A DNA stretch of 22,700 bases from Promethearchaeota archaeon (GCA_027031765.1 JALVPN010000221.1:1-22700); one strand, 5' to 3'; positions 6,684 to 22,302 are shown, counted from the first letter of the stretch. The notes: generated by a model not told the origin, from the letters alone. Numbers and translations: made by a program.

Positions 6684-7337
6684 TCACTCCGTCACGGGCT
6701 CTGATACTACAGGGCCCGAATACTTTGCCTGGAGCTCCTGCACGACCGCCCTTGCCTGGGCCCCCAACTCGTCCTCTCGTCCTACCAACGACTGCAATTC
6801 TGTCACTGCAATGGCATTGTGCCTGTGGGCCGCCAGGAACAGACTCTCAAGACAGTCGGTGAGCAGCTCCGTGTCCACTCCGCGGCCCTCCTCATATGCG
6901 ATAACTACTGGGTACGCAGCGTGTCTGTAAAAGTTGTTCTTGTATCCTTCCCCCAGAAAGGCAAGCCAGACATTCAGCACCAAGAGCATGATTCCGAAGG
7001 GAACATGCCCGCACATAAGCCCTTGGAACATGGGGTCAGCACTAGGACAGCAGAGAGAATACACAATCAAGAAGCCCAGGTTCCAGGGTAGGGCAACTAG
7101 GGTGAAATAGGAGCGGAGGTGGCTACCACACAGGAGCTGCCGCAAGCGACCAGCATGTCTGGTCGTGTATTCATCACCCCAGAAGTAGACATAGAGGATG
7201 GTCACAATGAAGGACTCTGGTACCATCACGCCTCCGAAAAAGATCATGATCCATGAGAAAAGGGCTATGTTTGAGAGAAAGATGTCGAAGACTGAGGAAA
7301 AGATGTCGAAGACTGAGGAAAAGATGTCGAGAGTCAT
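6684..7337 (-). CDS. Partner (putative immunity) membrane protein, family A
   Basis: ATGA overlap with the tip A stop. About 3 TM segments plus a helical C-terminal domain. Clear paralogue of 18747..19325 (shared FWGDEYTTRHAGRLR, AYEEGRGVDTELLTDCLES, QARAVVQELQAKYSGPVV). Confidence 0.75.
   Translation of the reverse strand: MTLDIFSSVFDIFSSVFDIFLSNIALFSWIMIFFGGVMVPESFIVTILYVYFWGDEYTTRHAGRLRQLLCGSHLRSYFTLVALPWNLGFLIVYSLCCPSADPMFQGLMCGHVPFGIMLLVLNVWLAFLGEGYKNNFYRHAAYPVVIAYEEGRGVDTELLTDCLESLFLAAHRHNAIAVTELQSLVGREDELGAQARAVVQELQAKYSGPVVSEPVTE
7278..7330. repeat. 21-bp tandem repeat, 2.5 copies (encodes DIFSSVF)
   Basis: aaagatgtcgaagactgagga x2 plus aaagatgtcga. Confidence 0.95.
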
Positions 7338-8257
7338 CGCTGTACCTCCGTGAACTCTTTGACCGAGGTTTCAAAATACTCTATCCATACGGATTGCATA
7401 GAGCCCACTATGAAGGAGTTGAACGCCGCACTTGCCATTCCCCGGAGAAGTCGGGGACAGTATATCTCTCTGAGCTTGCCAGACAGGTTCTCGGAAACAT
7501 GCCATAGCACTTGCAGTATGAAGGCATGCGTACCAGGTCCCATTGAGAACGTCAAGGCGGCCCACCATGCCCCCAATACCCCGACTACGAAATCGACCGT
7601 GACTCCACATGCTCCATAGGCCACTAGGAGTAGCGTCGACCGCTGACTCCAGGTCACATAGTGACCAGCCATGAGAGCCACTCTTGCAGCAGGTCCCATC
7701 ATGCACATTGTCATGCAGGCGTCTACTGCACCCAGACCAAGCAGCAGTGCGACACTCAACAGGAAGAGGACAGCTGAGGCGATACTCTCAACGGCAGTTG
7801 CCCCTGCCACATGCGCTGCCCAGGACTGTTCCTGTGGACTAGTCATCCGGTCGTCCACCGGCGTGCAAGTCTCACACCCTTCGACTCGAGAGTCACACAG
7901 CAGTTCCACTGAGACGTGCAGAGTAGCAGTGCCCCCTGCTGGAGTCGAGACCGTCAACGACAGGTGAATGCGCGGCCACCACCCTTCCCACCACGCCACA
8001 ACCTCCTCTGGCAACCTCTGGATGTCATCTGGGAGGAATCGGGCAGCTGGCAAGGGCTCGGCCTCTGCATGGCAGCCGTCAACATTCCCATGAGACTCCT
8101 CCGGCCCATCCGGGTCTGGCGCTGCCGGGTCGTGCCGCGTCAGCGCCGCTACCACCTTGATGTCGTGGGTGTGTATCTCCACCAGAGTGTACGAGGAGTA
8201 CCAATGTTTCATGATGACCACAGCATACTTGATGACTTGGGGGCCCCTGTCACTCAC
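7334..8257 (-). CDS. Orphan cassette, variable tip type A (junction module plus hydrophobic C-terminal domain)
   Basis: Begins directly in a degenerate junction module (QVIKYAVV...HDIKVVAALTRHDPAAPDPDGP). GTG overlaps the upstream stop. Paralogue of 19325..20389. Confidence 0.7.
   Translation of the reverse strand: MSDRGPQVIKYAVVIMKHWYSSYTLVEIHTHDIKVVAALTRHDPAAPDPDGPEESHGNVDGCHAEAEPLPAARFLPDDIQRLPEEVVAWWEGWWPRIHLSLTVSTPAGGTATLHVSVELLCDSRVEGCETCTPVDDRMTSPQEQSWAAHVAGATAVESIASAVLFLLSVALLLGLGAVDACMTMCMMGPAARVALMAGHYVTWSQRSTLLLVAYGACGVTVDFVVGVLGAWWAALTFSMGPGTHAFILQVLWHVSENLSGKLREIYCPRLLRGMASAAFNSFIVGSMQSVWIEYFETSVKEFTEVQR
8101..8240. repeat. Junction module copy 1 (degenerate)
   Basis: ccgggtcgtgccgcgtcagcgccgctaccaccttgatgtcgtg core shared with five other sites. 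Confidence 0.85.
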
Positions 8258-8790
8258 GGATGCCGGATATTATTAGTCGGCACTTGAGTGTTCCCAAGCC
8301 CTCCCGTAGGATCTGGGCTCGTACAACACACTCGTAAGAGGGCCATGAGAACTAACGGAAAGACCAACGAATACGTTAACTGCATGTCCTGCACCGTTTC
8401 CGGCAGTTCTTGGGGCCACAGTATTCCAATGACTAGCAAAGGCAGTCCGAAGAATATGGCGGTAGCACCGAGGTTGGCAATCAGACTTGCTCTCACGGTC
8501 CGGACAGTGGCCCCGTGAAGTCGGACGAGGAAAGGAAGAGGCCTCTCAGACTGGTCAGTCCTGGCCATAGCGGACTTTCTCGCATACCTCCTTGTTAGAT
8601 GACTTGCAATTCTAAGTACAATAAGTGGAAGGGAAGATATCATGTAAAGCCAGACCACAATCCATGGACTGATTGTCGTACGGACACCTCCTTTTCTCCT
8701 GCTATTTTGGACCTGAGAGGTAAATCCCTGCCATGACACCAAGTCCAAGCAATAGGAGCAGAGTTCGTGCACACTGCAAGAAAGTGTCAT
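8254..8790 (-). CDS. Partner (putative immunity) membrane protein, family C
   Basis: Three hydrophobic segments (WIVVWLYMISSLPLIVL, LGATAIFFGLPLLVIGILW, YSLVFPLVLMALL), directly after the 610-aa gene. The true start is uncertain and probably lies downstream of 8700 in transcription direction (GTG 8658 or ATG 8643). Confidence 0.65.
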   Translation of the reverse strand: MTLSCSVHELCSYCLDLVSWQGFTSQVQNSRRKGGVRTTISPWIVVWLYMISSLPLIVLRIASHLTRRYARKSAMARTDQSERPLPFLVRLHGATVRTVRASLIANLGATAIFFGLPLLVIGILWPQELPETVQDMQLTYSLVFPLVLMALLRVCCTSPDPTGGLGNTQVPTNNIRHP

Positions 8791-10534
8791 GGTACCCCCA
8801 CTCCTCTATTGTTTCGACCCTATACTTGCGTAGGGGTGTGAAAACTCGGCAGAAAAAAGTATGGGCAGCAAGCGTGTCCCCTCCAAAGACAATACCCCAT
8901 GTTAGTACAAATAACGAAACGACTGCATCACGCCATGCAATCTCTCTGAAAAGGTATCCCTGTGCAATGTTGACTATCAACGCAAATGCGAACCCAGTAT
9001 ATGCTAGCATGGACACCGTAAAAAGAAGTCTGGAATGCGGAATCAGTTGGAATGTGGCGAAAAACTGTGCCATCGTCAATGAAACCGTCACGCATATAGT
9101 GAGATCTCGGATTGCAGCGTGTCTGAGGACTCGCCCTACGGATGACTCGAAGTCCGCATCACTCATGGACTCTAGGAATGGGAAACTAAAGATACAGCTT
9201 TCTGTTGTGAGTGTTCCCAGTAGGTCCACATAGAAGACCATTGAGAATGTGAGCAATCCGATTACGAGGTTGAGAGTGAACTTCAAAGTTGGCCAAGGGC
9301 CTAACCATTCCAATTCGAGCGCATCTCTGGCCAGGTCTTCAAAACTAGCAACAAAACTTTCTGCCTGTGACCACCTACCTGCGCTCTGGGCAGTACCATC
9401 GGCAGTACCATCATACACCACCGGCTCATCCAGGTCCGGCGCTGTCGGGTCGTGCCGCGTCAGGTCCGCCACCACCCTGATGTCGTGGATTCGCATCCCC
9501 ACAAGGTCGGAACTGGAGTACCTGTAGCCCAGTATTGCCACGTACTTGATCACCCGGGAGGCATTGTTACAGTCGCCCAGTGCGAATGGGGCGGCCTGTC
9601 CATCGGTACTGGTAAAGACTGCGCCCTGTGGCGAGCCGTCGTGCTCGCCCCACGAGAACGTGACCGTCTTCTGGAAAAAGGACGTGTAGCTGTAGCCGGA
9701 CCACCTGCGGCAAGGCGACCCGCTGTCCTGTGGGTAGAAGTACGCATAGACGTAGCCCTTCCTGGCGTTGGACCACGAGTCACCAAACACCACCATCACT
9801 ACCCGTCGCATCTCCTCGTCACAGAGCGCGACGTACGTCTTGCCCATCCCGGCCCCGGAGTCCTGGAGCAGGTCGCAGACCACTGTGAACTCGCTGAGCT
9901 GGTAGAGCCTGAAGGGCCGGTCCAGGACGTGTACGTAGCACGGGCCGTGCCACCCCTCCCCGGTGGCTATCTCCGACCACGTCATGTAGCTCTGTCCTGA
10001 CGGTACTGTGAGCTCGCCGTCACCACGGGCACCGAAGGGGAACGACGGGTCGCTGTGGAACCCCTCCATGTCGTTGCACGTGTCGTGGAAGACCGTGGAC
10101 TCGGAGCCCACGTAGCTCACCCGGATGCCGTAGGCCCTCGCAAGGCCCTGAGTGACCCCATTGCGGTAGGCCTGTATGACGACGTACTGGATGGGCCTGT
10201 GACGGTCCACCTGGTCGTAGAGGTAGAGGACCTTCTCGTCAGCACCAGGCACGCCCGCCACCACTCCCTGTAGCGGGTCGTACCGCAGGGCCACCACGCC
10301 CGTGAACCGTCCCGGCACCGCCACCTGACTGCACGCGCTCGTACCGTCTTCCCGGTAGTAGTAGCGTGCGGTCACGTACACGGTTCTCCTGTTGAGGTGC
10401 CGCCCCAACAGCTGAGCTGTTTCGGGGGCACACCGACACACTCTGTCCTCTCTGAGCGTCCCCACAACACTACTGCGCGACACTGACACTGGAATGCTAC
10501 CTCTCCTCTTCTTTTCTCTCCTCTCCTCTCTCAC
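8702..10534 (-). CDS. Apparently full-length effector/surface protein: beta-rich N-terminal domain, junction module, hydrophobic tip type C
   Basis: 610-aa ORF. aa ~50-355 are rich in aromatic and beta-strand residues, DLTRHDP is at ~aa 357-363, and about 4 hydrophobic helices follow, ending TLLLLLGLGVMAGIYLSGPK. It is the only copy with a long intact N-terminus. Confidence 0.8.
   Translation of the reverse strand: MREERREKKRRGSIPVSVSRSSVVGTLREDRVCRCAPETAQLLGRHLNRRTVYVTARYYYREDGTSACSQVAVPGRFTGVVALRYDPLQGVVAGVPGADEKVLYLYDQVDRHRPIQYVVIQAYRNGVTQGLARAYGIRVSYVGSESTVFHDTCNDMEGFHSDPSFPFGARGDGELTVPSGQSYMTWSEIATGEGWHGPCYVHVLDRPFRLYQLSEFTVVCDLLQDSGAGMGKTYVALCDEEMRRVVMVVFGDSWSNARKGYVYAYFYPQDSGSPCRRWSGYSYTSFFQKTVTFSWGEHDGSPQGAVFTSTDGQAAPFALGDCNNASRVIKYVAILGYRYSSSDLVGMRIHDIRVVADLTRHDPTAPDLDEPVVYDGTADGTAQSAGRWSQAESFVASFEDLARDALELEWLGPWPTLKFTLNLVIGLLTFSMVFYVDLLGTLTTESCIFSFPFLESMSDADFESSVGRVLRHAAIRDLTICVTVSLTMAQFFATFQLIPHSRLLFTVSMLAYTGFAFALIVNIAQGYLFREIAWRDAVVSLFVLTWGIVFGGDTLAAHTFFCRVFTPLRKYRVETIEEWGYHDTFLQCARTLLLLLGLGVMAGIYLSGPK
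9421..9577. repeat. Junction module copy 2 (in the full-length gene)
   Basis: Encodes GDCNNASRVIKYVAILGYRYSSSDLVGMRIHDIRVVADLTRHDPTAPDLDEP. Confidence 0.92.
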
Positions 10535-11262
10535 TGTCTGCGTCTGTGTCTGTGTCCATGTCTGTGTTTCATGCAGGCGTCCTCTATCTTTCTCAGGCCC
10601 TCATGCGCGGTCCTGCACCCATGCCGGTGCATGGTACCACGCGACAGACGGGTGGATGAGGGTGCCCAGCCCCTACCCTGCACGGGGCCGGACCCGACTT
10701 TCTCTATCAAGTGCTACTCACATACGCGACAATATAAGGGGCGGGGTCACAGTGCCGTGCCGAACTCTGGCCCGGAGGGCCTGTCTGGCGCCATTCCGGG
10801 GATCATGGGAGAGGGAGAGGACGACGCGCCCACGAGGGTGTCCTGGAAAGGACAAAAATGGCCCTCTCTGCTTAACATCTGGCCACGCTGCTGGTGCGGC
10901 CACGACCACTCCGTCACGTGCTGTCCAGCGCCGGCTCCAGTGCAGGGTGTGCCACGGAGGAGAACCGGCCAGAAGACAGTCCACAACCCGTCCTTCAAGA
11001 GAGAGGGGAGCGACGGAAGAGAGATGAGTGAGGGATAGGACTGGCAACCAGATAGCATGTCTGCCGGAAAGGAGTTCAGCAGACGTTGTGGCCCGTCAAC
11101 TCAAGTCAATTCCGGCCCCGTATTTTGGGACACATCATTATCCGAAATATGCTCAGTCCTACTGTCAGTGCCGTGAAGACCAGTGTTGTCCGTCGTAGTC
11201 CGAGGAAATGGCAGTGGGCCTTTCCCTTGCAGGCCTGACAGCAGGAGGAAAATCTCAGTCCC

Positions 11263-11688
11263 TTACAACCGACCAAGAATGTTCAGTCCAATTATTCTTT
11301 CGAACTGGACAAGGTCATCGAGGTCGGACTTGAGTATGGTGAGCAGTATGGAGTTGTCAAAGTCCATGTAGCTGTGGACCAGGCGGTTCCTGAAGGCCGC
11401 CATCTTGGAAAGCCGCTCCGCAAAGTCCTGTGACAACAGACCATGCTTTGAAAGGACTGTGAACACTTCAGCATAGGAAGTGGGTTTTTCCCAGCCCATT
11501 CTACCTATGATTGCATTCCCGATGTCCAGACAGATCTGGATAGCTTCTATGAGATAGAACTTGGCGGCACCGAGATAGATACGGTTGTTCACCAGTTCGG
11601 CATGCCCTATTGATGCTATTTCTCTCAGGACAGCAATACTAGAGTCAAGTCGAGACAGTCTCTCCCTGATTGAACCAGAGGACATCAA
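11263..11688 (-). CDS. hepT: HEPN (DUF86/HepT-like) RNase toxin
   Basis: RNRLVHSY matches the R-X4-H-X-Y motif. EAIQICLDIGNAII and P-T-S-Y-A-E-V-F are typical of DUF86. Overlaps the MNT gene. Confidence 0.9.
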   Translation of the reverse strand: MMSSGSIRERLSRLDSSIAVLREIASIGHAELVNNRIYLGAAKFYLIEAIQICLDIGNAIIGRMGWEKPTSYAEVFTVLSKHGLLSQDFAERLSKMAAFRNRLVHSYMDFDNSILLTILKSDLDDLVQFERIIGLNILGRL

Positions 11689-12125
11689 GAGGCCTCACCG
11701 TCCACAAGGCGCCTGTGCAGATATGCGTAGTACGTGTCAAGGGCATACTTGAAGTCGAGGTACTCGATAAGCGTCCGGGTCTCAAAGGATGCCCGGATCT
11801 CATCGTCAAGACAATAGATGACGCGCCCGTCCTTGATGACCTGGTACCGGAACTCCACAGGGGCGTGGTCCAGGGACTGGAGGTCCACTTCGACATCAGG
11901 AACAATCCGGGACAGGTCGTAGGTCAGGTCTCTCAGGAGAGATGCGTACTCTGAGTCTGGTGTGCCATCTGGGAGCAGGACCGCAATATCGAGGTCACTG
12001 AGCGGAGTCGTAGCTCTCAAGGCGTAGGAACCATGGAGGTAGGCCAGTACAACGCCTTGGGTCGCCAGTATCTCGGTTATTGCCGGCAGCAATGCCTCCA
12101 GCTCTTCAGGACTCGGTCCAGTCAT
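11685..12125 (-). CDS. mntA: Minimal nucleotidyltransferase (MntA-like) antitoxin
   Basis: YLHGSYA...SDLDIAV catalytic motif, VDLQSL third Asp, 146 aa, directly upstream of the HEPN gene. Confidence 0.9.
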   Translation of the reverse strand: MTGPSPEELEALLPAITEILATQGVVLAYLHGSYALRATTPLSDLDIAVLLPDGTPDSEYASLLRDLTYDLSRIVPDVEVDLQSLDHAPVEFRYQVIKDGRVIYCLDDEIRASFETRTLIEYLDFKYALDTYYAYLHRRLVDGEAS

Positions 12126-12470: not shown

Positions 12471-12666
12471 TGGTGGTCAAGCGCCGTCCTCGCACATGTC
12501 CATCTCGTCCAGTCCCGTGTCATCCTCCATCTCCTCCTCTATCTCCTCATCTGCCGGATATGGTCTGCCGGCGCCCCAGTACCTGTAGCGAGGGTCATAC
12601 ATAGGGTAACAGCACGTCATTACTACTACCCAGAGGACGAAGATGGGGTATCTTCCCATCTCATAC
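12283..12666. repeat. ~385-bp direct repeat, near-identical to 22318..22700
   Basis: Base-by-base comparison shows only scattered substitutions and small indels. Covers the 3' end of partner E plus the downstream arm. Confidence 0.93.
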
Positions 12667-12998
12667 ATGACACCTGACAGGAAAGCGGGGGGCAACAGGA
12701 GCCACCAGAACAAGGACGTGGGCAATACAGCGGAAGCATATGCCATGAGCATGTATGTGACCAGGTCTACTGGTCGTGTCACGTGTTCTGCGTACCATGC
12801 ACCACGTCTCGTGGGGTCAAGTCCCGCCCCTCTCATCTTCAGCACAAGCTGCCACTCACCGTCACGTCTGTAGCGACTGAACAAGATATAGATGGTCCCA
12901 CCAACCAGTACTCCAGTGCACCATGCAATCAAACTGAGGACACCTTCCTGCACCTGACAGCCCTCCGGCCGATAGTCCGGCCCGTAGTCACGTCCCAT
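12477..12998 (-). CDS. Partner (putative immunity) membrane protein, family E, with acidic tail
   Basis: About 4 hydrophobic segments and a C-terminal DEEIEEEMEDDTGLDEMD. ATG overlaps the stop of 12988..13203. Paralogue at 22511..22700. Confidence 0.72.
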   Translation of the reverse strand: MGRDYGPDYRPEGCQVQEGVLSLIAWCTGVLVGGTIYILFSRYRRDGEWQLVLKMRGAGLDPTRRGAWYAEHVTRPVDLVTYMLMAYASAVLPTSLFWWLLLPPAFLSGVMYEMGRYPIFVLWVVVMTCCYPMYDPRYRYWGAGRPYPADEEIEEEMEDDTGLDEMDMCEDGA

Positions 12999-13203
12999 CA
13001 GACCACTGATAAATCCACCCTACTAAGAAGCCAACTGCAAAGACGACTATAGTGAGCAAGACGACAAGATCCGCCAACATGAGTCCAAAATGTATCCGCC
13101 CCTCAAGGCCTCTCTTCTGCCACTGTTGCCCATGCTGATACCGCTCTCTGAAACACCTGGAGTACTCCGCAGCACCCCTACTCTTTTCACCCAAACGATA
13201 CAT
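12988..13203 (-). pseudogene. Probable remnant C-terminal end of a tip (type E)
   Basis: Ends in one long hydrophobic helix (FGLMLADLVVLLTIVVFAVGFLVGWIY), as tips B, C and D do, and overlaps the partner E start. No junction module upstream. Confidence 0.45.
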
Positions 13204-13239
13204 ACTCTACCTGAGCCGAGAGAAACAGGGAAAGGCAGA

Positions 13240-13890
13240 CTACTGTCTGCTGGACTCTTCTTTGAGCTTGTGTCGTTCCCAGAAGAACCTGACAATAGCA
13301 TGTGGTGAGTATCCAAAAGTGAGGCCCAGCAGCGGGATAATGAAAACACGTGGGTCTTGGAGTACAAACCAAATGGCCAGGAGCAAGGGCACATAGATCA
13401 CGACTATCGAAGAGAGCAAGAATGCTACAGTCCATTCTGTCTTGAAGAGGACCCTTCCGACAGGCGTTTCTTCAAACTCTTCTGAAAGTGTTTTTTCCCC
13501 TGACGTTGTGCGTCGCTCCCTCATCTTTTGCGAATGTCCCACAAGAGGGACGCCTATCAGCAGGGAATACAAGAACCATCCTATAGAAGATGAGAGGCCG
13601 ACCATCATTGCAGCTGGGAAGAGGGGTGACGACATCCCCAAGTCAGGCGGAAAGGGCTGTAGTAGGATTTTGACTGCAAGCCAGACCATCAGTATGGAAG
13701 GCACAATCATTACAAGGAATAAGACAGCAAGAAACACAAGAAATGAGAAGTCCCTCGTGTCCTTCATTCTCTCGCCGGGGTCTCTCATACCCAGTGACAT
13801 GACAGTAATCCCTTCCTTCCGGCTATTGTCCACATCCTTGTCAGGTTCAGACCCTGCTTGTACTTGGATGTCATACAAGGTCCATTCCAT
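13240..13890 (-). CDS. Partner (putative immunity) membrane protein, family D
   Basis: Four TM segments (FLVFLAVLFLVMIVPSILMVWLAV, MMVGLSSSIGWFLYSLLIGV, VAFLLSSIVVIYVPLLLAIWFV, FIIPLLGLTFG). Overlaps the tip D stop. Confidence 0.78.
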   Translation of the reverse strand: MEWTLYDIQVQAGSEPDKDVDNSRKEGITVMSLGMRDPGERMKDTRDFSFLVFLAVLFLVMIVPSILMVWLAVKILLQPFPPDLGMSSPLFPAAMMVGLSSSIGWFLYSLLIGVPLVGHSQKMRERRTTSGEKTLSEEFEETPVGRVLFKTEWTVAFLLSSIVVIYVPLLLAIWFVLQDPRVFIIPLLGLTFGYSPHAIVRFFWERHKLKEESSRQ

Positions 13891-14860: not shown

Positions 14861-14891
14861 CCGACCCACCGGTGCCCGCATACACCGCTCC
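14830..14891. repeat. 31-bp tandem duplication (frameshifting)
   Basis: ctgacccaccagtcctcgcatacaccgctcc / ccgacccaccggtgcccgcatacaccgctcc. Confidence 0.88.
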
Positions 14892-15198
14892 CTGACCACC
14901 CCGGTACGACTCCCACCAAGACTCCCCAGTTTCGACAGACCAAGACTCCCCAGTCTCGACAGAGGAGGAGGCCATGATCCCTGACGACTGCACACCACTA
15001 CCTCCACCCTGTGGGTAGGGGCAGACGTTGGGCCAGCCCCTGGTGGTACCACCTCACACACCGTCCAGATTCGCCCCATGCACCGCCCCAGTGGACACGC
15101 ATCACGGTTTCCCCCTACTTGTCGTCTGGGCCCAGCTGTGTCCTGTCCGCCACCAATGTCACTATGTCCGCCACCTTGTCCTATGGGGGGATTGTGGA
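14861..15198 (-). pseudogene. Frameshifted homology arm of cassette D
   Basis: Encodes in shifted frames VTLVADRTQ..., GWPNVCPYPQGGGSGVQSSGIM...ESWWESYRGGQGAVY, homologous to aa ~215-320 of the 610-aa gene. Confidence 0.7.
14915..14962. repeat. 24-bp tandem duplication (SVETGESW x2)
   Basis: accaagactccccagtttcgacag / accaagactccccagtctcgacag. Confidence 0.92.
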
Positions 15199-15858
15199 CT
15201 AATCCCCATTCTGTAGACGTGCCGCATACCATTCTGCGTACCATTCTCTGTAGGCCCTCCCAAATGCCTCTCCGCACTCATCGTCCCGCGCCAGCAGTTG
15301 TCTGAATGCTCTGGCAAAGCTGTTTCGCGTCCTCCCCTGACGCATCTTCTCGTACTTCGTGAGCAGACGGTGCACTAGTTCCTTGAATGCAGTCCTATCA
15401 GGTGTTGACTGACGAAATGCCGTTTCTACTGCCCCTACTATTTCATCTGTTGGAAGTTGTTCCCATGCCTCTTCCCATGCCCGCTCCCTGTCTGTCGTTT
15501 CTCTTCTCCCGAACCGTCTTAACGCACCTTTGTATGTGTCATAGAAGAAAGTTGGTGCAGTCAGGAAGATTGTCAATAGAACTCCAATCAGTGTAGTCTC
15601 GGCATTCTCGTAAGAGCCTGAGATGTAGGGCCACAAGCACAAGAATGTAATGAAGGCCACTGCCACAACATCGAACATACCATAGGTCGTCATTGCTCGC
15701 CTGAAAGTCCCACAGAAGAACCGTCCCACCCTCCGGAGTACGATGGGGCCACATTCATGCTCGGAACAAATGTCGGATACCCAGATGAAAACGGCCAACA
15801 GGAAGACCGTCCCGAACACTCCAAAGACTTGCAAGAGAAGGAGCTGTTGTTCAGTCAT
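15199..15858 (-). CDS. Partner (putative immunity) membrane protein, family B
   Basis: GAGGTG ribosome-binding site, 12 bp after the tip B stop. Three TM segments plus a helical C-terminal domain. Paralogue of 20537..21241. Confidence 0.8.
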   Translation of the reverse strand: MTEQQLLLLQVFGVFGTVFLLAVFIWVSDICSEHECGPIVLRRVGRFFCGTFRRAMTTYGMFDVVAVAFITFLCLWPYISGSYENAETTLIGVLLTIFLTAPTFFYDTYKGALRRFGRRETTDRERAWEEAWEQLPTDEIVGAVETAFRQSTPDRTAFKELVHRLLTKYEKMRQGRTRNSFARAFRQLLARDDECGEAFGRAYREWYAEWYAARLQNGD

Positions 15859-15870: not shown

Positions 15871-16842
15871 TCAAGAGTTCTCAAGACCCATTGTCAAGAA
15901 CCTGGAGATGCAATAGACACAAGTGACCAGGACTGCTACCTTTACCAGTGCTATTGCGGCATACCAAAGGCCTATTCTAAGGGGACCAGAAGGCATTGCA
16001 TCGAGTGGCCGTAGCAGTTCCCATAGACCAGACATGAACCATGCCATTCGGAGAGCATAGGCTAGCCCCGGGAAAAGCAGGCCTAACAATGTGGCTAGTG
16101 CTGTAGCTGCACCGAAGGGATGGACTATTCCCTCATCGACAACATAGAACAGATACGCCAAGTAAGATACAAATATCACAGTCCAAGCAGCAAGCATCGC
16201 TAGTAGGGTTCCCAAATCCATGCCAATCGTCAGAGGAGACGCCACAGCTTCTATTGCCCTCAACCCTAGTGATAGAGCATAGCTCAATGCTACAGGGATG
16301 ACAAAAAGGGAAATGAAATCAGTGTATTGTGTTTCCATTTCTGTAGCTGCACTCCGTAGCTCTTGTTCCGAATGTTCCCGTTCAACCGGAGTAACTATAC
16401 TCAGTGAATGTACTTGAAAGTCACCCAAGATATCAGTCGACACAAGGAATGTCAGAGTCCCCTCCCCATCAAATGTCCCAGTGAACTGCAAGAATAGACG
16501 GGGCCAGCAGTTGACCAGCTCCCAGGAGACATCAATTGACTGGAGGAATGGACTCAGGACTGCACCCACACTCTCTACGAGGTCGTCCTGATGCTCAACC
16601 GCCCCCATTCCTGTCCCATCAGATACCACCGGCTCCTCCGGGTCTGGCGCATCCGGGTCGTGCCGTGTCAGGTCTGCCACCACCCTGGTGTCGTGTATGC
16701 CCATCCCCATAAGGTCGACACCGGAGTACCTGTAGCCAAAAATCGCCACGTATTTGACCACGCGCGAGGCATTGTCGCACTTGCCTATCAGACCGGGCGT
16801 TCCAGACCCATCAGTGCCCGCATTCACCGCTCCCCGACCACC
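15871..16842 (-). CDS. Orphan cassette, variable tip type B (5'-frameshifted)
   Basis: Homologous part of track ORF 15871..17088: GGRGAVNAGTDGSGTPGLIGKCDNASRVV...DLTRHDP...NCWPRL...DILGDFQV plus hydrophobic helices. Paralogue of 21238..22302. Confidence 0.72.
   Translation of the reverse strand, partial: GGRGAVNAGTDGSGTPGLIGKCDNASRVVKYVAIFGYRYSGVDLMGMGIHDTRVVADLTRHDPDAPDPEEPVVSDGTGMGAVEHQDDLVESVGAVLSPFLQSIDVSWELVNCWPRLFLQFTGTFDGEGTLTFLVSTDILGDFQVHSLSIVTPVEREHSEQELRSAATEMETQYTDFISLFVIPVALSYALSLGLRAIEAVASPLTIGMDLGTLLAMLAAWTVIFVSYLAYLFYVVDEGIVHPFGAATALATLLGLLFPGLAYALRMAWFMSGLWELLRPLDAMPSGPLRIGLWYAAIALVKVAVLVTCVYCISRFLTMGLENS
16629..16785. repeat. Junction module copy 4
   Basis: Encodes KCDNASRVVKYVAIFGYRYSGVDLMGMGIHDTRVVADLTRHDPDAPDPEEP. 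Confidence 0.92.
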
Positions 16843-16965
16843 CTGAGAGGGCCCACCACAACTCCCCGGCCTTCTTGGACGGGGTGCGGACATGTCCGGG
16901 ACCCTAGTAGCCTGGAGGACCTGTCCTGTGGACAGAGGTATGCGTTGGACCAGCCCTTGGTGAGA
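16843..16965 (-). pseudogene. Frameshifted homology arm of cassette B
   Basis: Alternative frames encode KGWSNAYLCPQDRSSR and GELWW, matching the arm consensus. Confidence 0.6.
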
Positions 16966-17105
16966 CCGACCCCGCACACCACCCCGGAGGAGGGGCATCA
17001 CAGTTTCCTCCTGCCTATCAACTAGGCCTGCGCGTGTCCTATCCGTCATATTGGCGTCCTCATATACCCACTGGACCACGAGTGGCATTGCGATGCCAAC
17101 GATGA

Positions 17106-17576
17106 CTATTCTGATCCCAGTCCGGACTCCTCGTCTGCTCCCTCCTCGTCCTCCTCATCCTCCTCATCCTCCTCGTCCTCCTCGTCCTCCTCATCCTCCT
17201 CGTCCTCCTCCTCATCCATTGGCTCCTCCGTCACCATTATGGTCAACAGAATGGCATTCAGAAAGCCCCCCCAAGAAAAAGTCAGAAAGTCGTCAATGGA
17301 AGGATGAGGGGGTCCAAACAAGAAGTCTACGAGCTCGGATGGCGCAAGGAGATATCCTGCAAGGAGTATACACAGAAAAGGGGCTTCGAGTGCAATGATA
17401 TTGTACATGAACTCTGTAATCCGCTTCTCTGATGCTTTCAGATACAAGATGGCAATCACTGGACAGGCCTCTTCAGCTCCTCTGAGATGTCGGATGCCAT
17501 AGACACTCCCCACCCCTAGAACAATCAGTATCAAGACGCCTGCAACTAGGCCTAGCAAGAACCAATCGACATACAT
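17106..17576 (-). CDS. Orphan partner-like membrane protein with poly-acidic tail
   Basis: ATG at 17576 with GGAGG upstream (MYVDWFLLGLVAGVLILIVLG). About 3 TM segments and a C-terminal (EED)n tract. Confidence 0.75.
   Translation of the reverse strand: MYVDWFLLGLVAGVLILIVLGVGSVYGIRHLRGAEEACPVIAILYLKASEKRITEFMYNIIALEAPFLCILLAGYLLAPSELVDFLFGPPHPSIDDFLTFSWGGFLNAILLTIMVTEEPMDEEEDEEDEEDEEDEEDEEDEEDEEGADEESGLGSE
17142..17217. repeat. 9-bp tandem array encoding (EED)n
   Basis: (tcctc[ag]tcc)n, about 8 units. Confidence 0.92.
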
Positions 17577-17807
17577 AGTCTGTTCCTCCGCAGTGACATG
17601 TAGACAAAGACTGATTTGAATGCCAGCACTGTCCTCAGTCCCCTCCGGAGTAGACAAGAGATGCCAGTAGGACAGTATACGCGAGCAAGACTCATTGATG
17701 CTCCTGCTGTCCCGTCATTCATCACCGGCTGGTGACAATGAAGACCAAGGCATCGTCTCTGGAGCTCTGGAGTGATACTTCAGACATGCAGTGTTAACAA
17801 TCCGTTG

Positions 17808-18287
17808 TTAGTCCAGTCCTTCATTGCGGAACCAGAATTTGTCAACGACAAGAAGTACCAGGAAGATTCCCCCAAGAATGATGGTTAGTGTCCAGAGGGG
17901 GAGAAGGCCTTGGAGTACTCTGTTTGAGAGAGACTGGGGTCGATGAAAAGGAATGGGCCACAGCATTACGATACCGTTAAAGGCAATTATGAGCAGCTCC
18001 AGTACTCCCCGCCACCAGCGTGGCCTGGACTCCAAGAGAGCAACGTCCTCTGTTACCAGTCCTTCAAGGCCGAACAGGACTTCAATAAGGGATGTCCCGA
18101 GATACTTGTCGCAGAACCAGAGAGATAGAAAAAACGTGACAAGAGCAGTAACGAGCCAGATGAGAAACTTATGCCAGGGAGATAGAAACAACGTCGATAG
18201 AAACAGCGTCACAAGAGAGACGACGACCCAAATGACAAACAACTGGTATAGATGCGGTCCTCGGACTGTTCTAGTCATCACTGTCAC
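17808..18287 (-). CDS. Orphan partner-like 4-TM membrane protein
   Basis: Four hydrophobic segments, GAGGTG upstream, similar size and topology to partners C, D and E. No intact cognate tip. Confidence 0.75.
   Translation of the reverse strand: MTVMTRTVRGPHLYQLFVIWVVVSLVTLFLSTLFLSPWHKFLIWLVTALVTFFLSLWFCDKYLGTSLIEVLFGLEGLVTEDVALLESRPRWWRGVLELLIIAFNGIVMLWPIPFHRPQSLSNRVLQGLLPLWTLTIILGGIFLVLLVVDKFWFRNEGLD
18181..18210. repeat. 15-bp tandem duplication (TLFLS x2)
   Basis: gatagaaacaacgtc / gatagaaacagcgtc. Confidence 0.85.
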
Positions 18288-18299
18288 CTCTTTCAGTCC

Positions 18300-18632
18300 T
18301 CATACCACCCAACCTGGAGCGTGAAAAGGTGAATCCGCAGACTGCATGGCAGTGATCTGTCCCACTTCCCAGGCCACCGCCCGTAGCCACATAGTAGCGG
18401 GAACGGTCATCATCCACCCTGCAGCCCTCATTGCCACCCCTTGCCTCGTGTTGGCCCAAAGACACATCCCAGTGCTTACCGCCACTGCATAGACCGGGAA
18501 CACGGGATTTCCAAGGAGCGACACCAACAGAACCTCCAACTCGTTGTAGTCGGGTCGGTTCTTTGTCTTTTTTGGCAGCACCGGATGACTTGGTAGGGCC
18601 ATCCGGTACGGTTGACAGTCCGTCAAGACCAA
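18300..18632 (-). pseudogene. Possible degenerate tip remnant upstream of orphan partner 17808..18287
   Basis: Hydrophobic stretch LEVLLVSLLGNPVFPVYAVAVSTGMCLW...AAGWMMTVPATMWLRAVAW in the position where a tip is expected. No junction module. An overlapping frame (18271..18750) competes. Confidence 0.3.
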
Positions 18633-18746
18633 GAATGAACAGGTGCACCAACAAGGGGGCGGACAATACCACTGGCCCCGTCCTAGGCGACCGGGGCCAC
18701 ACCAGCAGTTGTCGCTGCAACGTGAGAAACGGTCTTCTGTGCCCCA

Positions 18747-19325
18747 TCACTCTGTCACGGGCCCTGGCACCACCGGGCCCGAATACTTTGCTTGGAGTTC
18801 CTGCACGACCGCCCTTGCCTGAACCCCCAACTCGTCCTCCCGGTCTATCAACGACTGTAATACCTCCTCTGCGATGACACTGTGCCTGTGGGCGGCCAGG
18901 AACACACTCTCAAGACAGTCCGTGAGGAGCTCCGTGTCCACTCCGCGGCCCTCCTCATACGCGGCAACTATCGGCTGCACAACATGTCTGGGAAAGCAGT
19001 CCTTGTACAGCTCTCCTATATAGACAGCCCCAATATTCAGCACCACCAGAGCGACAGCTCCGAGGAGGACATCCCACCACAGAGGAGTCCCCTGAAACAT
19101 GGGGTCATCACTGAGACTGTCGAGAAAATGCCCGATGAAGAAGCCCAGGTTCGCGGGCAGGGCAACAAGGGTGAAATAGGAGCGGAGGTGACTACCACAC
19201 AGGACTCGCCGCAGGCGACCAGCATGTCTGGTCGTGTACTCATCACCCCAGAAGACAGTGGTGATTGAACAGACCCACGCTAGTGCCATTACAGCTGCTA
19301 CCACAGCCAAGCGAAAAGAGGTCAT
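18747..19325 (-). CDS. Partner membrane protein, family A (allele A')
   Basis: ATG at 19325 in a TAATG overlap with the tip A' stop. Paralogue of 6684..7337. Confidence 0.78.
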   Translation of the reverse strand: MTSFRLAVVAAVMALAWVCSITTVFWGDEYTTRHAGRLRRVLCGSHLRSYFTLVALPANLGFFIGHFLDSLSDDPMFQGTPLWWDVLLGAVALVVLNIGAVYIGELYKDCFPRHVVQPIVAAYEEGRGVDTELLTDCLESVFLAAHRHSVIAEEVLQSLIDREDELGVQARAVVQELQAKYSGPVVPGPVTE

Positions 19326-20389
19326 TACTGTACCTCCATGAACTCTCTGACTGAGATCTCGTAAAACTTTGTCCATACGAACCACATAGATGCGACTATG
19401 AAGAAGTTGAACGCCGCAGCGACTATTCCCCAGAGAAGTCGGAAACGGTACGTTTCTCTGAGCTTACCAAACAAGTCCTCGGAAACATGCCACAAGAGTG
19501 GTACTATGAGGGCATACCCGACAAGCCCCGTTGGGTATGACAAGGCCATGCCCAACCACAGTCCCAGCAGTCCGACTACGAAATCGGCTGTGACCGCGCC
19601 TGCTCCATAGGCCGCTAGGAGTAGCGTAATCCACCGACTCCAAATCGCATAGTAACCAAGCATAAGGGCCACTTTTGCAGCAGGTTCTAGGCACGCCGCC
19701 ATCATGCAGGTGTCTACTACACCCAGACCAATTAGCAATGCGACACTCGACCACGCGATGGCAGTTGAAACAGTGTTCTCAACGGCAGTTGCCTCTGCCA
19801 CATGCACTGCCCAGGACTGCTCCTGTGCGTCAGTCATCCGGTCGTCCACCGGCGTGTCAATCTCACACCCTTCGACTCGAAAGTCACACAGCAGGTCGAC
19901 CGAGACGTGCAGAGTAGCCGTGCCACCTGCTGGAGTCGAGACCGTCAACGACAGGTGAATGCGGGGCCACCACCCTTCCCACCATGCCACAACCTGCTCC
20001 GGCAACCCCTGGATGTCATCCAGGAGGGACTGGACAGCTGGCGAGGGCTCGACCTCTGCATAGCACCCGTCAACAGTCCCATCGGACTCCTCTGGCTCCT
20101 CCGGGTCTGGCGCATCCGGGTCGTGCCGCGTCAGATCCGCCACCACCTTGATGTCGTGTATCCGCATCCCCACAAGGTCGAAACCAGAGTGCCTGTAACC
20201 CGAGACCGCCACGTACTTGGCCACACGCGGGGCATTGTCGCACTCGCCTATCGGACCAGGCGTCGCAGGCCCAGTGCTCACATTCACCGCTCCATCACCA
20301 CCCACCGGACAGTCCCCACCACAACGCCCCAGTCTTCCTGGACAGGGTGCACGAGTACCCTGGGTCCCAGTGGCCTGGAGGACTGTCAT
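19325..20389 (-). CDS. Orphan cassette, variable tip type A (allele A')
   Basis: IGECDNAPRVAKYV...DLTRHDPDAPDPEEP...WWEGWWPRIHLSLTV. In-frame homology starts ~20300 and upstream homology is in another frame. Confidence 0.72.
   Translation of the reverse strand: MTVLQATGTQGTRAPCPGRLGRCGGDCPVGGDGAVNVSTGPATPGPIGECDNAPRVAKYVAVSGYRHSGFDLVGMRIHDIKVVADLTRHDPDAPDPEEPEESDGTVDGCYAEVEPSPAVQSLLDDIQGLPEQVVAWWEGWWPRIHLSLTVSTPAGGTATLHVSVDLLCDFRVEGCEIDTPVDDRMTDAQEQSWAVHVAEATAVENTVSTAIAWSSVALLIGLGVVDTCMMAACLEPAAKVALMLGYYAIWSRWITLLLAAYGAGAVTADFVVGLLGLWLGMALSYPTGLVGYALIVPLLWHVSEDLFGKLRETYRFRLLWGIVAAAFNFFIVASMWFVWTKFYEISVREFMEVQ
20092..20248. repeat. Junction module copy 5
   Basis: Encodes ECDNAPRVAKYVAVSGYRHSGFDLVGMRIHDIKVVADLTRHDPDAPDPEEP. 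Confidence 0.92.
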
Positions 20390-20536
20390 GTAGAGAGGAG
20401 TAGACGTTGGACTGGCGTCTCATGCCGCCGGCCCACGCAACGCCCTGTCGACAGGCATCACGGTCGCTGTTGCTCGTCGTCCAAGCCCGGCTGTGTCATG
20501 TCCGCCACCAATGTACACTGTGTCCGCCACCCTGTC
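20390..20536 (-). pseudogene. Frameshifted homology arm of cassette A'
   Basis: A shifted frame reads RQSNVYSSLHDSPPGHWDPGYSCTLSRKTGALWWG (running into 20310), versus YAYFYPQDSGSPCRRWSGYSYTSFFQKTVTFSWG in the 610-aa gene. The TLVADMTQ segment is shared with 15100-15200. Confidence 0.68.
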
Positions 20537-21241
20537 CTATGGGGAGGCCATGGACTGGTCCCCGTCCTGTAGATATGTAGCATACCATTCTCTGTAGGCC
20601 CTCCTGAATGCCTCCCCGCACTCATCGTCCCGGGCCAGCAGCTGTCTGAATGCTCTGGCAAAGATGTTTCGCGTCCCCCCCTGACGCATCTTCTCGTACT
20701 CTGTGAGCAGACGGTGCACCAGTTCCTTGAATGCAGTCCTGTCAGGTGTTGACTTACGAAAGGCCGTCTCTACTGCCCCTACTACTGCATCTACTGGGAC
20801 CTGCTCCCACGCCTGTTCCAGGGCCCGCTCCCTGTCTGTCATCTCTCTTCTCCCGAACCGCCTTGAGAGCTCTCTGTATCTGCCGTAGACAGAGAAAATG
20901 AGAAAGAACAGTGGTAGAAGAATAAAAATCCAAATCACGGACAGAAGAAACAGGGATAGGCCATCCATCGGGCCTGCTGGCACTGACAATAGTGCTGACA
21001 GAAGTGGCACTGACAATAGTGCTGACAGAAGGAATGCTACCATAACATCAAACATGACATAGGTCGTCATTGCCCGTTTGAAAGTCCCACACAGGAAACG
21101 TCCCACCCTTCGCAGTACCATGGGGCCACATTCATGCTCGGAACAACAGTCGGATACCATGATAAACAAGCCGAACAACAGGAGTATTGCGGGCGCCCAG
21201 ATAATGAGGACTATCGGGAGGGGCGGTTGTTCGGTCATCAT
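20537..21241 (-). CDS. Partner membrane protein, family B (allele B')
   Basis: ATGA overlap with the tip B' stop. Paralogue of 15199..15858 (CSEHECGP, STPDRTAFKELVHRLLT, ARAFRQLLARDDECGEAF). Confidence 0.8.
   Translation of the reverse strand: MMTEQPPLPIVLIIWAPAILLLFGLFIMVSDCCSEHECGPMVLRRVGRFLCGTFKRAMTTYVMFDVMVAFLLSALLSVPLLSALLSVPAGPMDGLSLFLLSVIWIFILLPLFFLIFSVYGRYRELSRRFGRREMTDRERALEQAWEQVPVDAVVGAVETAFRKSTPDRTAFKELVHRLLTEYEKMRQGGTRNIFARAFRQLLARDDECGEAFRRAYREWYATYLQDGDQSMASP
20978..21031. repeat. Perfect 27-bp tandem duplication (LLSALLSVP x2)
   Basis: tggcactgacaatagtgctgacagaag x2. Confidence 0.95.
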
Positions 21242-22302
21242 GTTTCCACCTCAGAAGTCCAGTTCCTGAGACCCATCTCCAAGAACTTGACAATGTAATA
21301 GATACAGGTGACCAGGACCGCTACCTTTACCAGTACGACTGTGGCAGACCAGAGGCCTATCTTGCGGGAGCCAGAGGGCAGCCCTAGGTCGAAAGGTCGT
21401 CGTGTTCTCCATATACCAGACATGCACCAGGCCCTGCCAAGGACCAAGCGCATGGATCCGTCCCCAAGAAACGGTATCAAGAATGTGGTCAATGCTCCGG
21501 CGGCAGCAAGAGGACTGGTCACCCCCTCATCTACAGTATGGACTAGATACACCAAGTATGACACGAATGCCACAGTCCAAGCAGCAAGCATCACTAGCAG
21601 GACTCCCAGACTTGTGTCAATATTCAAAGGAGATGCCACAGCTTCTATTGCCTTCCATCCCAGTCCCACAGTAAGGGCAAGTGCCGTAGGGACAGCGTAT
21701 TCTGAAATGAGCTCGTCGTATTGTGTTTTCATTTCTGCCACTACATTCTGTAGCTCCTGCTCTGAGAGTCCCTGCTCAACCGAAGTAGCTATACTCAGTG
21801 AATGTATTTGAAAGTCACCCAAGATATCAGTTGAAACGAGTAGTGTGAGAGTCCCCTCCCCATCAAATGTCCCAGTGAACTGCAAGAATAGACGGGGCCA
21901 GAAGTTGACCAGCTCCCAGAAGACATCAATTGGCTGGAGGAATGGACTCAGGACTGCACCCACACTCTCTACGAGGTCGTCCTGATGCTCAACCGCCCCC
22001 ATTCCTGTCCCATCAGATACCACCGGCTCATCCGGGTCTGGCGCATCCGGGTCGTGCCGCGTCAGGTCCGCCACCACACTGGTGTCGTGTATGCGCATCC
22101 CCACCAGCTCGGGACTGGAGTACCTGTAGCCCAGGACTGCCACGTACTCGACCACCGGCAGGGACTTGTTGCACTCCGCTATCAGACATGCACTCTCCTG
22201 TCCGTCAATGCTCGGATACACCGTCCCGTGGCCACCCCGAAACGGATCCCACCACAACTCCCTTGTTTCGACAGAGGAAGTCATAGTCCCCGATGACAGC
22301 AC
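21238..22302 (-). CDS. Orphan cassette, variable tip type B (allele B')
   Basis: The frame is homologous to the 610-aa gene from KGWPNVYSYPQ (22350) through G-T-V-Y-P-S-I-D-G-Q and the junction module. In-frame stop at 22366-22368. Confidence 0.72.
   Translation of the reverse strand: MLSSGTMTSSVETRELWWDPFRGGHGTVYPSIDGQESACLIAECNKSLPVVEYVAVLGYRYSSPELVGMRIHDTSVVADLTRHDPDAPDPDEPVVSDGTGMGAVEHQDDLVESVGAVLSPFLQPIDVFWELVNFWPRLFLQFTGTFDGEGTLTLLVSTDILGDFQIHSLSIATSVEQGLSEQELQNVVAEMKTQYDELISEYAVPTALALTVGLGWKAIEAVASPLNIDTSLGVLLVMLAAWTVAFVSYLVYLVHTVDEGVTSPLAAAGALTTFLIPFLGDGSMRLVLGRAWCMSGIWRTRRPFDLGLPSGSRKIGLWSATVVLVKVAVLVTCIYYIVKFLEMGLRNWTSEVET
22023..22178. repeat. Junction module copy 6
   Basis: Encodes ECNKSLPVVEYVAVLGYRYSSPELVGMRIHDTSVVADLTRHDPDAPDPDEP. 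Confidence 0.92.

Follow-up and report, generated by a model that had tools for sequence, protein, structure and literature searches.

Bacterial polymorphic toxins (Rhs, CdiA, MafB, LXG) are large exported proteins with a variable C-terminal domain, followed downstream by 5'-truncated orphan cassettes in which a cognate small gene lies behind every tip; the junction before the tip is conserved (PMC3482391). In those exported by Sec, TM-helical toxin tips (Tox-WTIP) and caspase-like releasing peptidases both occur (PMC3482391). The locus described here is built likewise in all these traits, hydrophobic TM-helical tips included, the internal caspase-like processing domain being a possible one. 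A second comparison is with the pore-forming colicins (A, E1, Ia and N) and the class I CdiA-CT ionophores, whose membrane-active C-terminal domain is neutralised by a small immunity protein of 2-4 TM helices; tip and partner of our array are laid out alike. In these toxins the specificity of immunity depends on contacts between helices inside the membrane. Bacteriocins, too, include series of alleles that share one fold and have cognate immunity, for example the E-type DNase colicins. The array analysed here appears to be an archaeal toxin/immunity or self-recognition system not described before.

The window (the whole stretch of 22,700 nt that was analysed) is an orphan-cassette array from a Thorarchaeota-type Asgard archaeon. 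It contains six cassettes and two tip remnants (tblastn); tip types A and B are present twice each, C and D once each. All cassettes, partners, remnants and the MNT/HepT genes are on the minus strand, and the motifs quoted in the initial annotation were confirmed at their places in all six tips. The features are as follows:

22463..22700, minus strand: second copy of the partner gene pE, 3' part, 96% identical to 12429-12666
21238..22302, minus strand: orphan cassette B2, a type-B tip at 21241-21954 preceded by the linker and the final part of the last beta-sandwich (motifs)
20537..21241, minus strand: pB2, with three TM helices and a soluble C-terminal domain carrying an RDDECG motif
19325..20389, minus strand: orphan cassette A2, tip at 19328-20020 (motifs, tblastn)
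18747..19325, minus strand: pA2, likely start ATG at 19325 in a TAATG overlap with the tip stop
18306..18651, minus strand: tip remnant of a further type (P0017/P0007-like), about 46 aa and a weaker fragment (tblastn)
17808..18287, minus strand: intact small multi-TM protein adjoining the tip remnant, four or five hydrophobic helices
17106..17657, minus strand: small TM protein with a poly-acidic tail (hydropathy)
15871..17088, minus strand: orphan cassette B1, tip at 15874-16560 (motifs, tblastn), tip modelled (AlphaFold m07646d0740e4)
15199..15858, minus strand: pB1, with homologues behind type-B tips
13871..15277, minus strand: orphan cassette D, tip at 13874-14596 (motifs), family homology from near 14866
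13240..13890, minus strand: pD, multi-TM (hydropathy); the listed ORF overlaps the tip stop and the true start may differ
13003..13212, minus strand: type-E tip remnant, last about 70 aa (tblastn, E 1e-22)
12477..12998, minus strand: pE', intact, directly behind the truncated E tip
11263..12125, minus strand: MNT/HepT toxin-antitoxin pair, MNT at 11685-12125 and HepT at 11263-11688 (Pfam)
8702..10534, minus strand: long orphan C, a type-C tip at 8705-9343 preceded by the linker and by two beta-sandwich modules of lectin-like type
8254..8790, minus strand: pC, three TM helices; the ORF as listed runs 89 nt into the tip, and its start is uncertain
7334..8257, minus strand: orphan cassette A1, stub degraded, tip at 7337-8029 (motifs)
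6684..7337, minus strand: pA1, in ATGA overlap with the tip stop behind GGAGGT, homologous to pA2

Aligned by tblastn with full-length relatives, the orphans begin around residues 700-790 of the ~1060-aa protein. B2 covers residues about 702-966 only; the long orphan C matches residues 483-964 of the relative P0007 and the first ~480 full-length residues are absent. The stub before the tip is repeated in 5-6 copies in the window with a DNA identity of 70-83% between cassettes, and its invariant columns in a six-sequence alignment are V..Y..HD..VVA.LTRHDP.APD..P. Against 144 tips (tblastn), the remnant at 18306..18651 was detected as two fragments, 18306-18443 at E 4e-13 and 18487-18651 at E 1e-5, and is matched by residues 1013-1056 of P0007. 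The MNT gene (Pfam Polbeta, 2.7e-17) and the HepT gene (HepT-like, 2.8e-27) are an insertion in the array, outside the cassette system proper.

The full-length main gene is located on another contig of the same genome (C137), just beyond window position 22700, and its reading frame is open over 1283 aa. Window 12739-13193 recurs at C137:1-458 with 92.8% identity, the C137 end being a 93-95% copy of this region. The second copy of pE is split, its 3' part at the window end and its 5' part on C137 just downstream of the main gene, with an inferred gap of about 75 nt between the window and C137. The E cassette is duplicated, common to the main gene and the array: the remnant at 13003..13212 is of the same type as the main gene, with 92.8-94.8% DNA identity to the main-gene end. 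Only for the E cassette is there evidence of recent recombination, since the stubs of the cassettes share no more than 70-83% identity. The relatives are arranged in the same way, main gene and partner first and then several pairs of orphan and partner (L011, L019, G098, G155), and the same organisation was found in 14 genera.

That the window might be decaying debris, pseudogene fragments of a surface-protein family with no present function, we regard as very improbable. The N-terminal half is indeed absent from all six tip ORFs, the stub of A1 is degraded with two TAA stops in its upstream homology, two tips are reduced to remnants, and a dN/dS of 0.4-0.7 between duplicate cassettes (not >1) suggests relaxed constraint. 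However, the tip frames (~230 codons) and every partner frame are open, the start-stop coupling with SD-like motifs is kept, and both the intact main gene and the recurrence of the organisation across genera speak against decay.

The main gene and its relatives (1046-2092 aa) encode proteins with signal-like N-termini and the tip at the C-terminus. In the relatives, the order is a signal-peptide-like N-terminus, a domain with a caspase-like motif, 2-4 lectin-like beta-sandwiches, a linker and a tip of ~230 aa; the linker before the tip is conserved (LTRHDPxAPDPxEP). The beta-sandwich modules are conserved as well and match calreticulin, CBM and GH16-type folds, and also the ConA type. Five relatives have YxSHGG and HLFAAC without variation in the N-terminal domain of the full-length protein, a His-Gly/Ala-Cys motif likened to the clan CD dyad, whose two halves each follow a hydrophobic strand; this motif alone suggests that the domain may be caspase-like. 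Pfam and PDB sequence searches gave no match to it, and a weak match to CHAT (0.86) was found in the atlas.

Each tip has a type-specific partner gene with 2-4 TM helices directly behind it (hydropathy, BLAST), and hydropathy supports the earlier proposal that the cognate partners are membrane proteins. Within a type the partners are similar (pA1 and pA2 71% over 168 aa, pB1 and pB2 61%), and BLAST between partners of different types gave no cross-type match. At five loci a homologue of pB comes after a B tip; in four other genomes of the family the homologue begins 28-60 nt downstream of a tip. Partner start codons either overlap the tip stop (ATGA, TAATG) or follow it after 12 nt, with GGAGGT-like motifs upstream: pB2 starts in an ATGA overlap with the B2 tip stop preceded by GAGGTG, the start context of pA2 is GGAGGT, and pB1 is the one starting 12 nt after the B1 tip stop. 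As read from these start contexts, the tips are translationally coupled to their partners. A predicted complex of pB1 with the B1 tip was weak (0.36, vs 0.00 for the best control).

Behind both tip remnants (13003-13212 and 18306-18443) the partner genes are intact. Such retention behind remnants is typical of immunity genes kept under selection. The product of 17808..18287, which showed no family match, is read as an orphan partner from its position relative to the remnant; that of 17106..17657, which includes a nine-nt periodic GAG/GAT repeat at 17127-17237, is possibly a partner without a tip, and no tip remnant was detected upstream of it (tblastn, 144 tips).

W-x-G-x-WP and D[IL]L[GC] are common to all six tips of the window. 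In the six-sequence alignment W410, W414 and P415 of the tip are invariant; W13, W19 and P20 do not vary across 31 tips taken from the window and from relatives, and W..WP is present in 162 of the 174 proteins examined. Counted from 12 residues before the motif to the protein end, the tip length is 213-241 aa in 28 of 29 relatives, the exception being P0015 (partial, 189 aa), and the median in a larger set is 229 aa. Through hydropathy analysis, 3-4 strongly hydrophobic helices were found per tip. The initial annotation was correct that B, C and D end in a TM helix and slightly understated the case, because A2 also has a terminal hydrophobic helix (315-340); the last helix of A1 is below threshold.

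AlphaFold models were obtained for types B (B1, m07646d0740e4, pLDDT 79) and C (m85604c8ae7a1, pLDDT 80), both built from alignments mixing tip types. The two models have an identical order of elements, one to one: a short helix, a 4-strand beta meander and four long hydrophobic helices, B1 having 4 strands and 4-5 helices. The meander is Trp-rich and amphipathic, and carries W-x-G-x-WP ... D[IL]LG. For the helical part alone, after removal of the motif region, hhalign gave 97% for B-C, 98% for B-A and 64% for C-D against at most 4.9% in reversed controls; the direct links are A-B, B-C and C-D, and A-C, A-D and B-D are joined only through other types. The view that the tips are divergent versions of one domain, already put forward in the annotation, is supported by both models and profiles.

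For the window tips, Pfam gave no family at E <= 0.1, Foldseek with the tip models nothing at E <= 0.001, and the best VIA-align rows, with Z <= 8.5, were helical matches of a generic kind. The sequence and structure searches yielded no enzymatic family or fold, nuclease and deaminase included, in agreement with the earlier reading of the motifs. The suggested resemblance to pore-forming colicins found no support: no tip matched the Colicin family of Pfam, and neither the colicin bundle nor any other known pore-former appeared among the Foldseek or VIA-align rows.

The tip family comprises at least 203 clusters at 50% identity, the tip being C-terminal in all matches listed. The median pairwise identity among 142 cluster representatives is 15%, and by BLAST linkage the tips fall into 23 types. 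Within the phylum the tip family is all but confined to one Asgard family, where 26 of 76 genomes have it; with only about a third of the genomes carrying it, the system is accessory. Identical tip types recur across genera, and a single genome can have several types. Within a type, tip and partner diverge mainly in the membrane helices: the type-B tip is 89% identical in the beta part and 53% in the helical part, and pB 43% in the TM part and 78% in the soluble tail; for type A the values are 89/59 for the tip and 44/82 for the partner. This pattern fits the helix-helix immunity logic of the pore-forming colicins. The partners of A and B both have a conserved soluble domain of roughly 75-110 aa.

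The gene anatomy is that of the classical polymorphic-toxin plan, as the full-length gene with 5'-truncated orphans, the coupled partners, the partners behind remnants and the duplicated cassette indicate. Building on the observed architecture, single fold, cognate linkage, coupling, partner retention and duplicated E cassette, we give about an even chance to the joint reading that the window holds the orphan cassettes of a polymorphic surface protein restricted to Asgard archaea of the Thorarchaeota type, and that this protein is a membrane-acting effector with intramembrane immunity. The tip would be a membrane-perturbing, ionophore- or pore-like effector, and the small membrane protein behind it would be the cognate immunity protein, binding the tip helix-to-helix within the membrane. 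The conserved stub would let orphan cassettes recombine into the main gene, changing the tip and partner type expressed; we further infer toxicity, immunity, transfer to other cells and proteolytic release. The confident models, in which no enzymatic fold was matched, support this reading. Against it, the four strongly hydrophobic helices and the placement of the loops would suit a tip that stays anchored, N-out and C-out, in the membrane of the cell producing it, and the conserved soluble domain of the A and B partners would be superfluous for simple immunity. Further points against it are the failure to match any known pore-former, the lack of secretion or injection machinery among the window ORFs scanned, the limitation of recent recombination to the E cassette, the dN/dS of 0.4-0.7 between duplicate cassettes, and the missing Pfam and PDB sequence matches for the N-terminal domain.

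The predicted topology (N-out, C-out, with a basic loop between helices 3 and 4) would also suit a role outside conflict, in which the tip would simply hold a lectin-like adhesin or envelope protein in the membrane, with the partner as a subunit for its assembly or stabilisation. Cassette variation would then have another purpose, for example escape from viruses or foreign toxins that use the complex as receptor. The carbohydrate-binding-type beta-sandwiches of the protein body and the accessory distribution agree with this; yet variation against external agents is expected in the exposed parts, which are conserved, an anchor has no need of 23 or more sequence types with a separate partner for each, and the retention of partners without tips is hard to explain. 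We consider such a role quite unlikely.

Somewhat less improbable, though still doubtful, is a self-identity or kin-recognition code. Tip and cognate partner would form a membrane complex reporting "self", and after membrane contact, exchange or fusion an unmatched tip would alter behaviour or cause incompatibility, analogous in logic to IdsD/IdsE, to Myxococcus outer-membrane exchange with SitA/SitI and to fungal het loci. The single fold, the joint variation of tips and partners in their membrane helices, the very high allelic diversity with types recurring across genera, and the failure to match any enzymatic or known pore fold can all be read in this way; the tip has more in common with a stable membrane anchor than with a toxin that is soluble and deliverable, and the conserved cytoplasmic domain of the A and B partners could signal. 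But the variable part is membrane-buried and the exposed lectin-like modules are conserved, so two intact cells could recognise each other only by exchanging or fusing membranes, a process not known from these organisms, and no transfer apparatus was found among the window ORFs scanned. Truncated-orphan arrays with intact partners behind remnants are a toxin/immunity signature, and we know of none at Ids-type loci. The initial annotation held the array closer to allorecognition than to a toxin assortment; no tested evidence favours this over the toxin plan. The contrast it drew with classical arrays mixing unrelated tips is real, but not diagnostic, because single-fold series also exist among bacteriocins.

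Compared with the known systems, the array differs from IdsD/IdsE of Proteus mirabilis in its setting. Both have a variable TM-bearing protein and a cognate membrane partner, there defining identity. Ids proteins are delivered by a T6SS, and orphan-cassette arrays are not a feature of their loci; in a Pfam scan of 20 window ORFs, no T6SS or contractile-injection domain, nor other secretion or injection machinery, was found. Unlike the 10-helix bundle of colicins, the tip is modelled as a beta meander with four fully hydrophobic helices and no soluble "inside-out" bundle, and colicin-type receptor-binding or translocation domains were not seen. Membership in CdiA/CdiB was rejected: the window proteins and ten long relatives contain no TPS domain, FHA repeats, VENN junction or CdiB (Pfam), the junction here being LTRHDPxAPDPxEP vs VENN in CdiA, and RHS repeats, PAAR and LXG/WXG were likewise not found.

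The VARTIG system of Thermococcales is likewise archaeal, a large surface protein with a recombination-hypervariable C-terminal part followed by subfamily-specific small membrane proteins, with no recognisable toxin (PMC8416519), and the same three competing hypotheses were raised for it (Makarova et al. 2021, PMC8416519). Protein families and phylum differ, and the variable part of VARTIG is an extracellular Ig domain, whereas here it is a 4-helix membrane domain and the extracellular beta-sandwiches are conserved. VARTIG membership was rejected, as the variable part is TM and not the hypervariable C-terminal Ig domain of the arCOG07710 protein. The genomic traits by which polymorphic toxins are recognised (Zhang et al. 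2012), an exported body with a variable C-terminus, downstream orphans sharing a junction sequence and a type-specific small gene, are all found in the array; what sets it apart from the bacterial systems is the Asgard host, the lack of matches to their trafficking domains and tips that all belong to one new membrane-domain family instead of an enzyme mix.

The six tip ORFs in the window could be aligned with one another, from a conserved stub (V..Y..HD..VVA.LTRHDP.APD..P) through an invariant W/W/P to the D[IL]L[GC] motif. W..WP did not vary across 31 tips of the window and relatives, and was found in 162 of the 174 proteins of a larger set. Tips were strikingly uniform in length, measuring 213-241 aa in all but one of 29 relatives (median 229 aa in the larger set), and each tip carried three to four strongly hydrophobic helices. 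P0005, a full-length relative of 1061 aa, aligned to the window cassettes over its last 280-360 residues only; the match of the C ORF begins at about residue 530 in P0005 and at residue 483 in a second relative, P0007.

The genome's own full-length gene is located on another contig, C137, in an open frame that spans 1283 aa and is truncated at the end of the contig, and its tip belongs to a fifth type, E. The start of this contig (C137:1-458) showed 92.8% identity with window 12739-13193, a segment composed of the E-tip end and the start of gene 12477-12998, and the window's final 238 bases showed 96% identity with the 3' part of the same gene. C137 therefore almost certainly joins the window just past 22700, across a gap of about 75 nt. 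All genes concerned are on the minus strand, and we infer the following order.

Inferred gene order of the joined locus, in reading direction
C137: main gene with type E tip
partner pE
21238-22302, minus: cassette B2
20537-21241, minus: partner pB2
19325-20389, minus: cassette A2
18747-19325, minus: partner pA2
tip remnant
17808-18287, minus: small membrane-protein gene
17106-17657, minus: small membrane-protein gene
15871-17088, minus: cassette B1
15199-15858, minus: partner pB1
13871-15277, minus: cassette D
partner pD
E-tip remnant
partner pE'
11263-12125, minus: MNT/HepT (nucleotidyltransferase/HEPN) toxin-antitoxin pair, inside the array
8702-10534, minus: cassette C
partner pC
7334-8257, minus: cassette A1
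6684-7337, minus: partner pA1

The low-coordinate flank contained an XPD-type helicase gene (1325-3370) and a RadA gene (4442-5509), which mark the host as archaeal. G+C content was 49-61% in the array (6.7-22.7 kb) against 63-65% in the flank. Two ORFs on the minus strand (5626-6588 and 3377-4114), lying between the array and RadA/XPD, had the G+C content of the flank; no family was found for the former in Pfam, NCBIfam or PADLOC, nor for the latter in Pfam. We found no tRNA gene within the window. A 91-nt element (12223-12313) adjoins the MNT/HepT pair and also marks cassettes D and B2 at their 5' edges; in the related locus L012, HEPN/MNT and VapBC pairs adjoin a cassette. Immediately upstream of the truncated C ORF is a GACACA/GAGAGG low-complexity tract (10500-10570), where metagenome unitigs accumulate (depth 413, compared with about 12 elsewhere), presumably contributed by unrelated organisms.

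A third contig of this genome, C42, carried additional cassettes of the same system, including a C-like stub with 88% identity to window 9405-9820 and one tip frame interrupted by TAG. The related locus L011 comprises a main gene, its partner and then three pairs of orphan and partner, and comparable layouts were found in L019, G098, G155 and G069. Two intact partner genes were found behind tips shrunk to 46-70 codons. Pure decay of the array fits the data less well, and we consider it very improbable.

Directly behind every tip we found a gene for a small protein with two to five hydrophobic helices. The partner start overlaps the tip stop (ATGA, TAATG) or lies 12 nt downstream (B1/pB1), preceded by a GGAGGT-like motif. 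Partners are type-specific: pA1 and pA2 were 71% identical and pB1 and pB2 61%, and between types no BLAST match was obtained. Homologues of pB were found behind type-B tips in five loci, and in four further genomes 28-60 nt downstream of a tip. In type B, identity was 89% in the beta part of the tip and 53% in its helical part, and 43% in the transmembrane part of the partner and 78% in its soluble tail; the corresponding values in type A were 89%, 59%, 44% and 82%. Such within-type divergence, mainly in the membrane helices of tip and partner, suggests that specificity is determined within the membrane. When the B1 tip was predicted in complex with pB1, the signal was weak (median 0.36 against 0.00 in controls) and the three runs disagreed; it was given no weight here. 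Calculation of dN/dS revealed no positive selection over whole regions.

The soluble tail of partners of several tip types has a C-terminal helix motif, R-x-D-[DE]-x-G, detected in both pA and both pB proteins and in partners of the related loci L011 (8069-8455 and 11109-11786) and L020 (7704-8378); part of the partner repertoire may thus be one divergent family. The small membrane protein at 17106-17657 contains a long terminal D/E run, encoded by a 9-nt periodic repeat at 17127-17237, and acidic tails were also seen on the E partner and on one C42 partner.

The initial annotation had taken all tips for distant alleles of one fold. Two AlphaFold models were obtained, one of the last beta-sandwich with the type-C tip (pLDDT 80) and one of the type-B tip alone (pLDDT 79), and they match element by element: four strands, a short helix and four long helices, of which one has a kink. 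The input alignments combined several tip types, so the helical parts were additionally compared by type-specific profiles. Profiles of the helical part only were linked at 97% (B-C), 98% (B-A) and 64% (C-D); six of 13 groups were joined at ≥90%, and reversed-sequence controls did not exceed 4.9%. These connections confirm the single fold for types A, B and C and make it probable for type D.

Foldseek comparison of the tip-only model with the PDB gave nothing at E ≤ 0.001; the best row, a 4-strand Hia translocator unit (E 0.07, 50 residues), was treated as a generic beta meander. A wide VIA-align search with this model reached a best Z of 8.5 with generic helical bundles only, and its ClyA, Bak, CorA/Mrs2 and similar rows were at noise level for helical models. 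In the ESM atlas TM was at most 0.42 and no match was significant. No enzymatic toxin or colicin domain appeared in the tip-only comparisons with the PDB and the ESM atlas, and scanning the tips and partners with Pfam, NCBIfam and PADLOC gave no meaningful match.

A tip profile search against 1.84 billion representatives detected at least 203 clusters (50% identity), with the tip C-terminal in all matches listed; median pairwise identity among 142 tips was 15%. Among 301 genomes of the phylum, matches occurred in 26 of the 76 from the window's own family, spread over 14 genera including the window's own, with a single marginal match among the 224 genomes of the other 29 families. Homologues of the 8702-10534 protein came from metagenome-assembled genomes only, and those with a named source were Candidatus Thorarchaeota and one Lokiarchaeota. 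The stretch occurred in one public sequencing run only, from a hydrothermal-vent metagenome, probably the sample of origin, and no RNA run containing it was listed. Unitigs of this metagenome branch exactly within conserved stubs (14774-14807 and 20100-20154), and two bridge different cassettes (joints 9820>20076 and 22277>14978), being too short to separate recombinants from repeat collapse. The branching and joints could represent strain variants, recombinants or mere repeat collapse.

Judged by eye, the relatives start with charged residues and then about 20 hydrophobic ones, resembling a signal peptide or signal anchor. A conserved N-terminal domain of about 230 aa (L001 and L003 on C137, P0005, P0007, P0042, P0096 and P0152) has invariant YxSHGG and HLFAAC motifs separated by about 35 residues. 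These resemble the His-Gly/Ala-Cys dyad of clan CD peptidases (caspase, legumain), and the domain could accordingly be a candidate tip-releasing protease; a PDB profile search and Pfam gave no match for it, and atlas features gave only weak leads. The body is composed of repeated beta-sandwich modules, and Foldseek matched the one modelled module to lectin domains of calreticulin, a CBM from a phage and GH16 glucanases (E 1e-8 to 1e-5). The linker before the tip is predicted to be disordered. Some full-length proteins (L003, about 1540-2500; P0030, residues 165-241) contain an extra inserted beta-sandwich related to that of D-glucuronyl C5-epimerase (PF21174, 3.5e-17 in P0030), so the number of stalk modules varies.

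We favour the tips as membrane-acting effectors with intramembrane immunity, and hold this at about even chances, because the gene anatomy follows the polymorphic toxin plan, the tips form one new membrane-domain family and the partners are membrane proteins. Delivery is the chief problem for this reading. The consensus tip topology, with an acidic N-terminal part outside and a basic loop separating helices 3 and 4, is, as predicted, what a protein stably anchored in the membrane of its own producer would show. No export or injection machinery was seen in the window. A plain anchor role is a poorer fit to the data and decidedly unlikely. The anchor-like topology and the delivery difficulty leave an appreciable, if lesser, possibility that the tips are a code for self-identity or post-fusion incompatibility, which would also account for the cytoplasmic domain that is conserved in the A and B partners. 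We might even speculate, as an unlikely case, that tip-partner pairs form a membrane-embedded allorecognition code, by which cells exchanging or fusing membranes (protrusions, vesicles, bridges) would accept one another only if each tip that arrives finds its cognate partner; a tip left without one would cause depolarisation, an analogue of heterokaryon or fusion incompatibility.

The locus is well delimited and testable, with a new membrane-domain family, hundreds of allelic clusters and matching small membrane partners, and clearly predicts a helix-to-helix specificity readout within the membrane. If the tips are toxins, they would constitute a new family of membrane-acting effectors and give a first entry point to antagonism in Asgard archaea; if identity markers, they would bear on membrane contact, exchange or fusion between cells in the lineage closest to eukaryotes. 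The allorecognition code, if true, would place a prokaryotic counterpart of fusion incompatibility in the organisms known to be most closely related to eukaryotes.

The systems for conflict and recognition between archaeal cells are, to our knowledge, almost wholly uncharacterised. Literature searches found no such system described for Asgard archaea and no paper describing this tip family, of which a 2019 mBio survey of archaeal polymorphic toxins may hold an earlier mention. The closest archaeal analogue in logic, without sequence likeness, is VARTIG of Thermococcales, a module with a hypervariable Ig-domain surface protein. Polymorphic toxin systems match the gene anatomy here feature by feature (PMC3482391), whereas the tips here constitute a single new membrane-domain family and the partners are membrane proteins.
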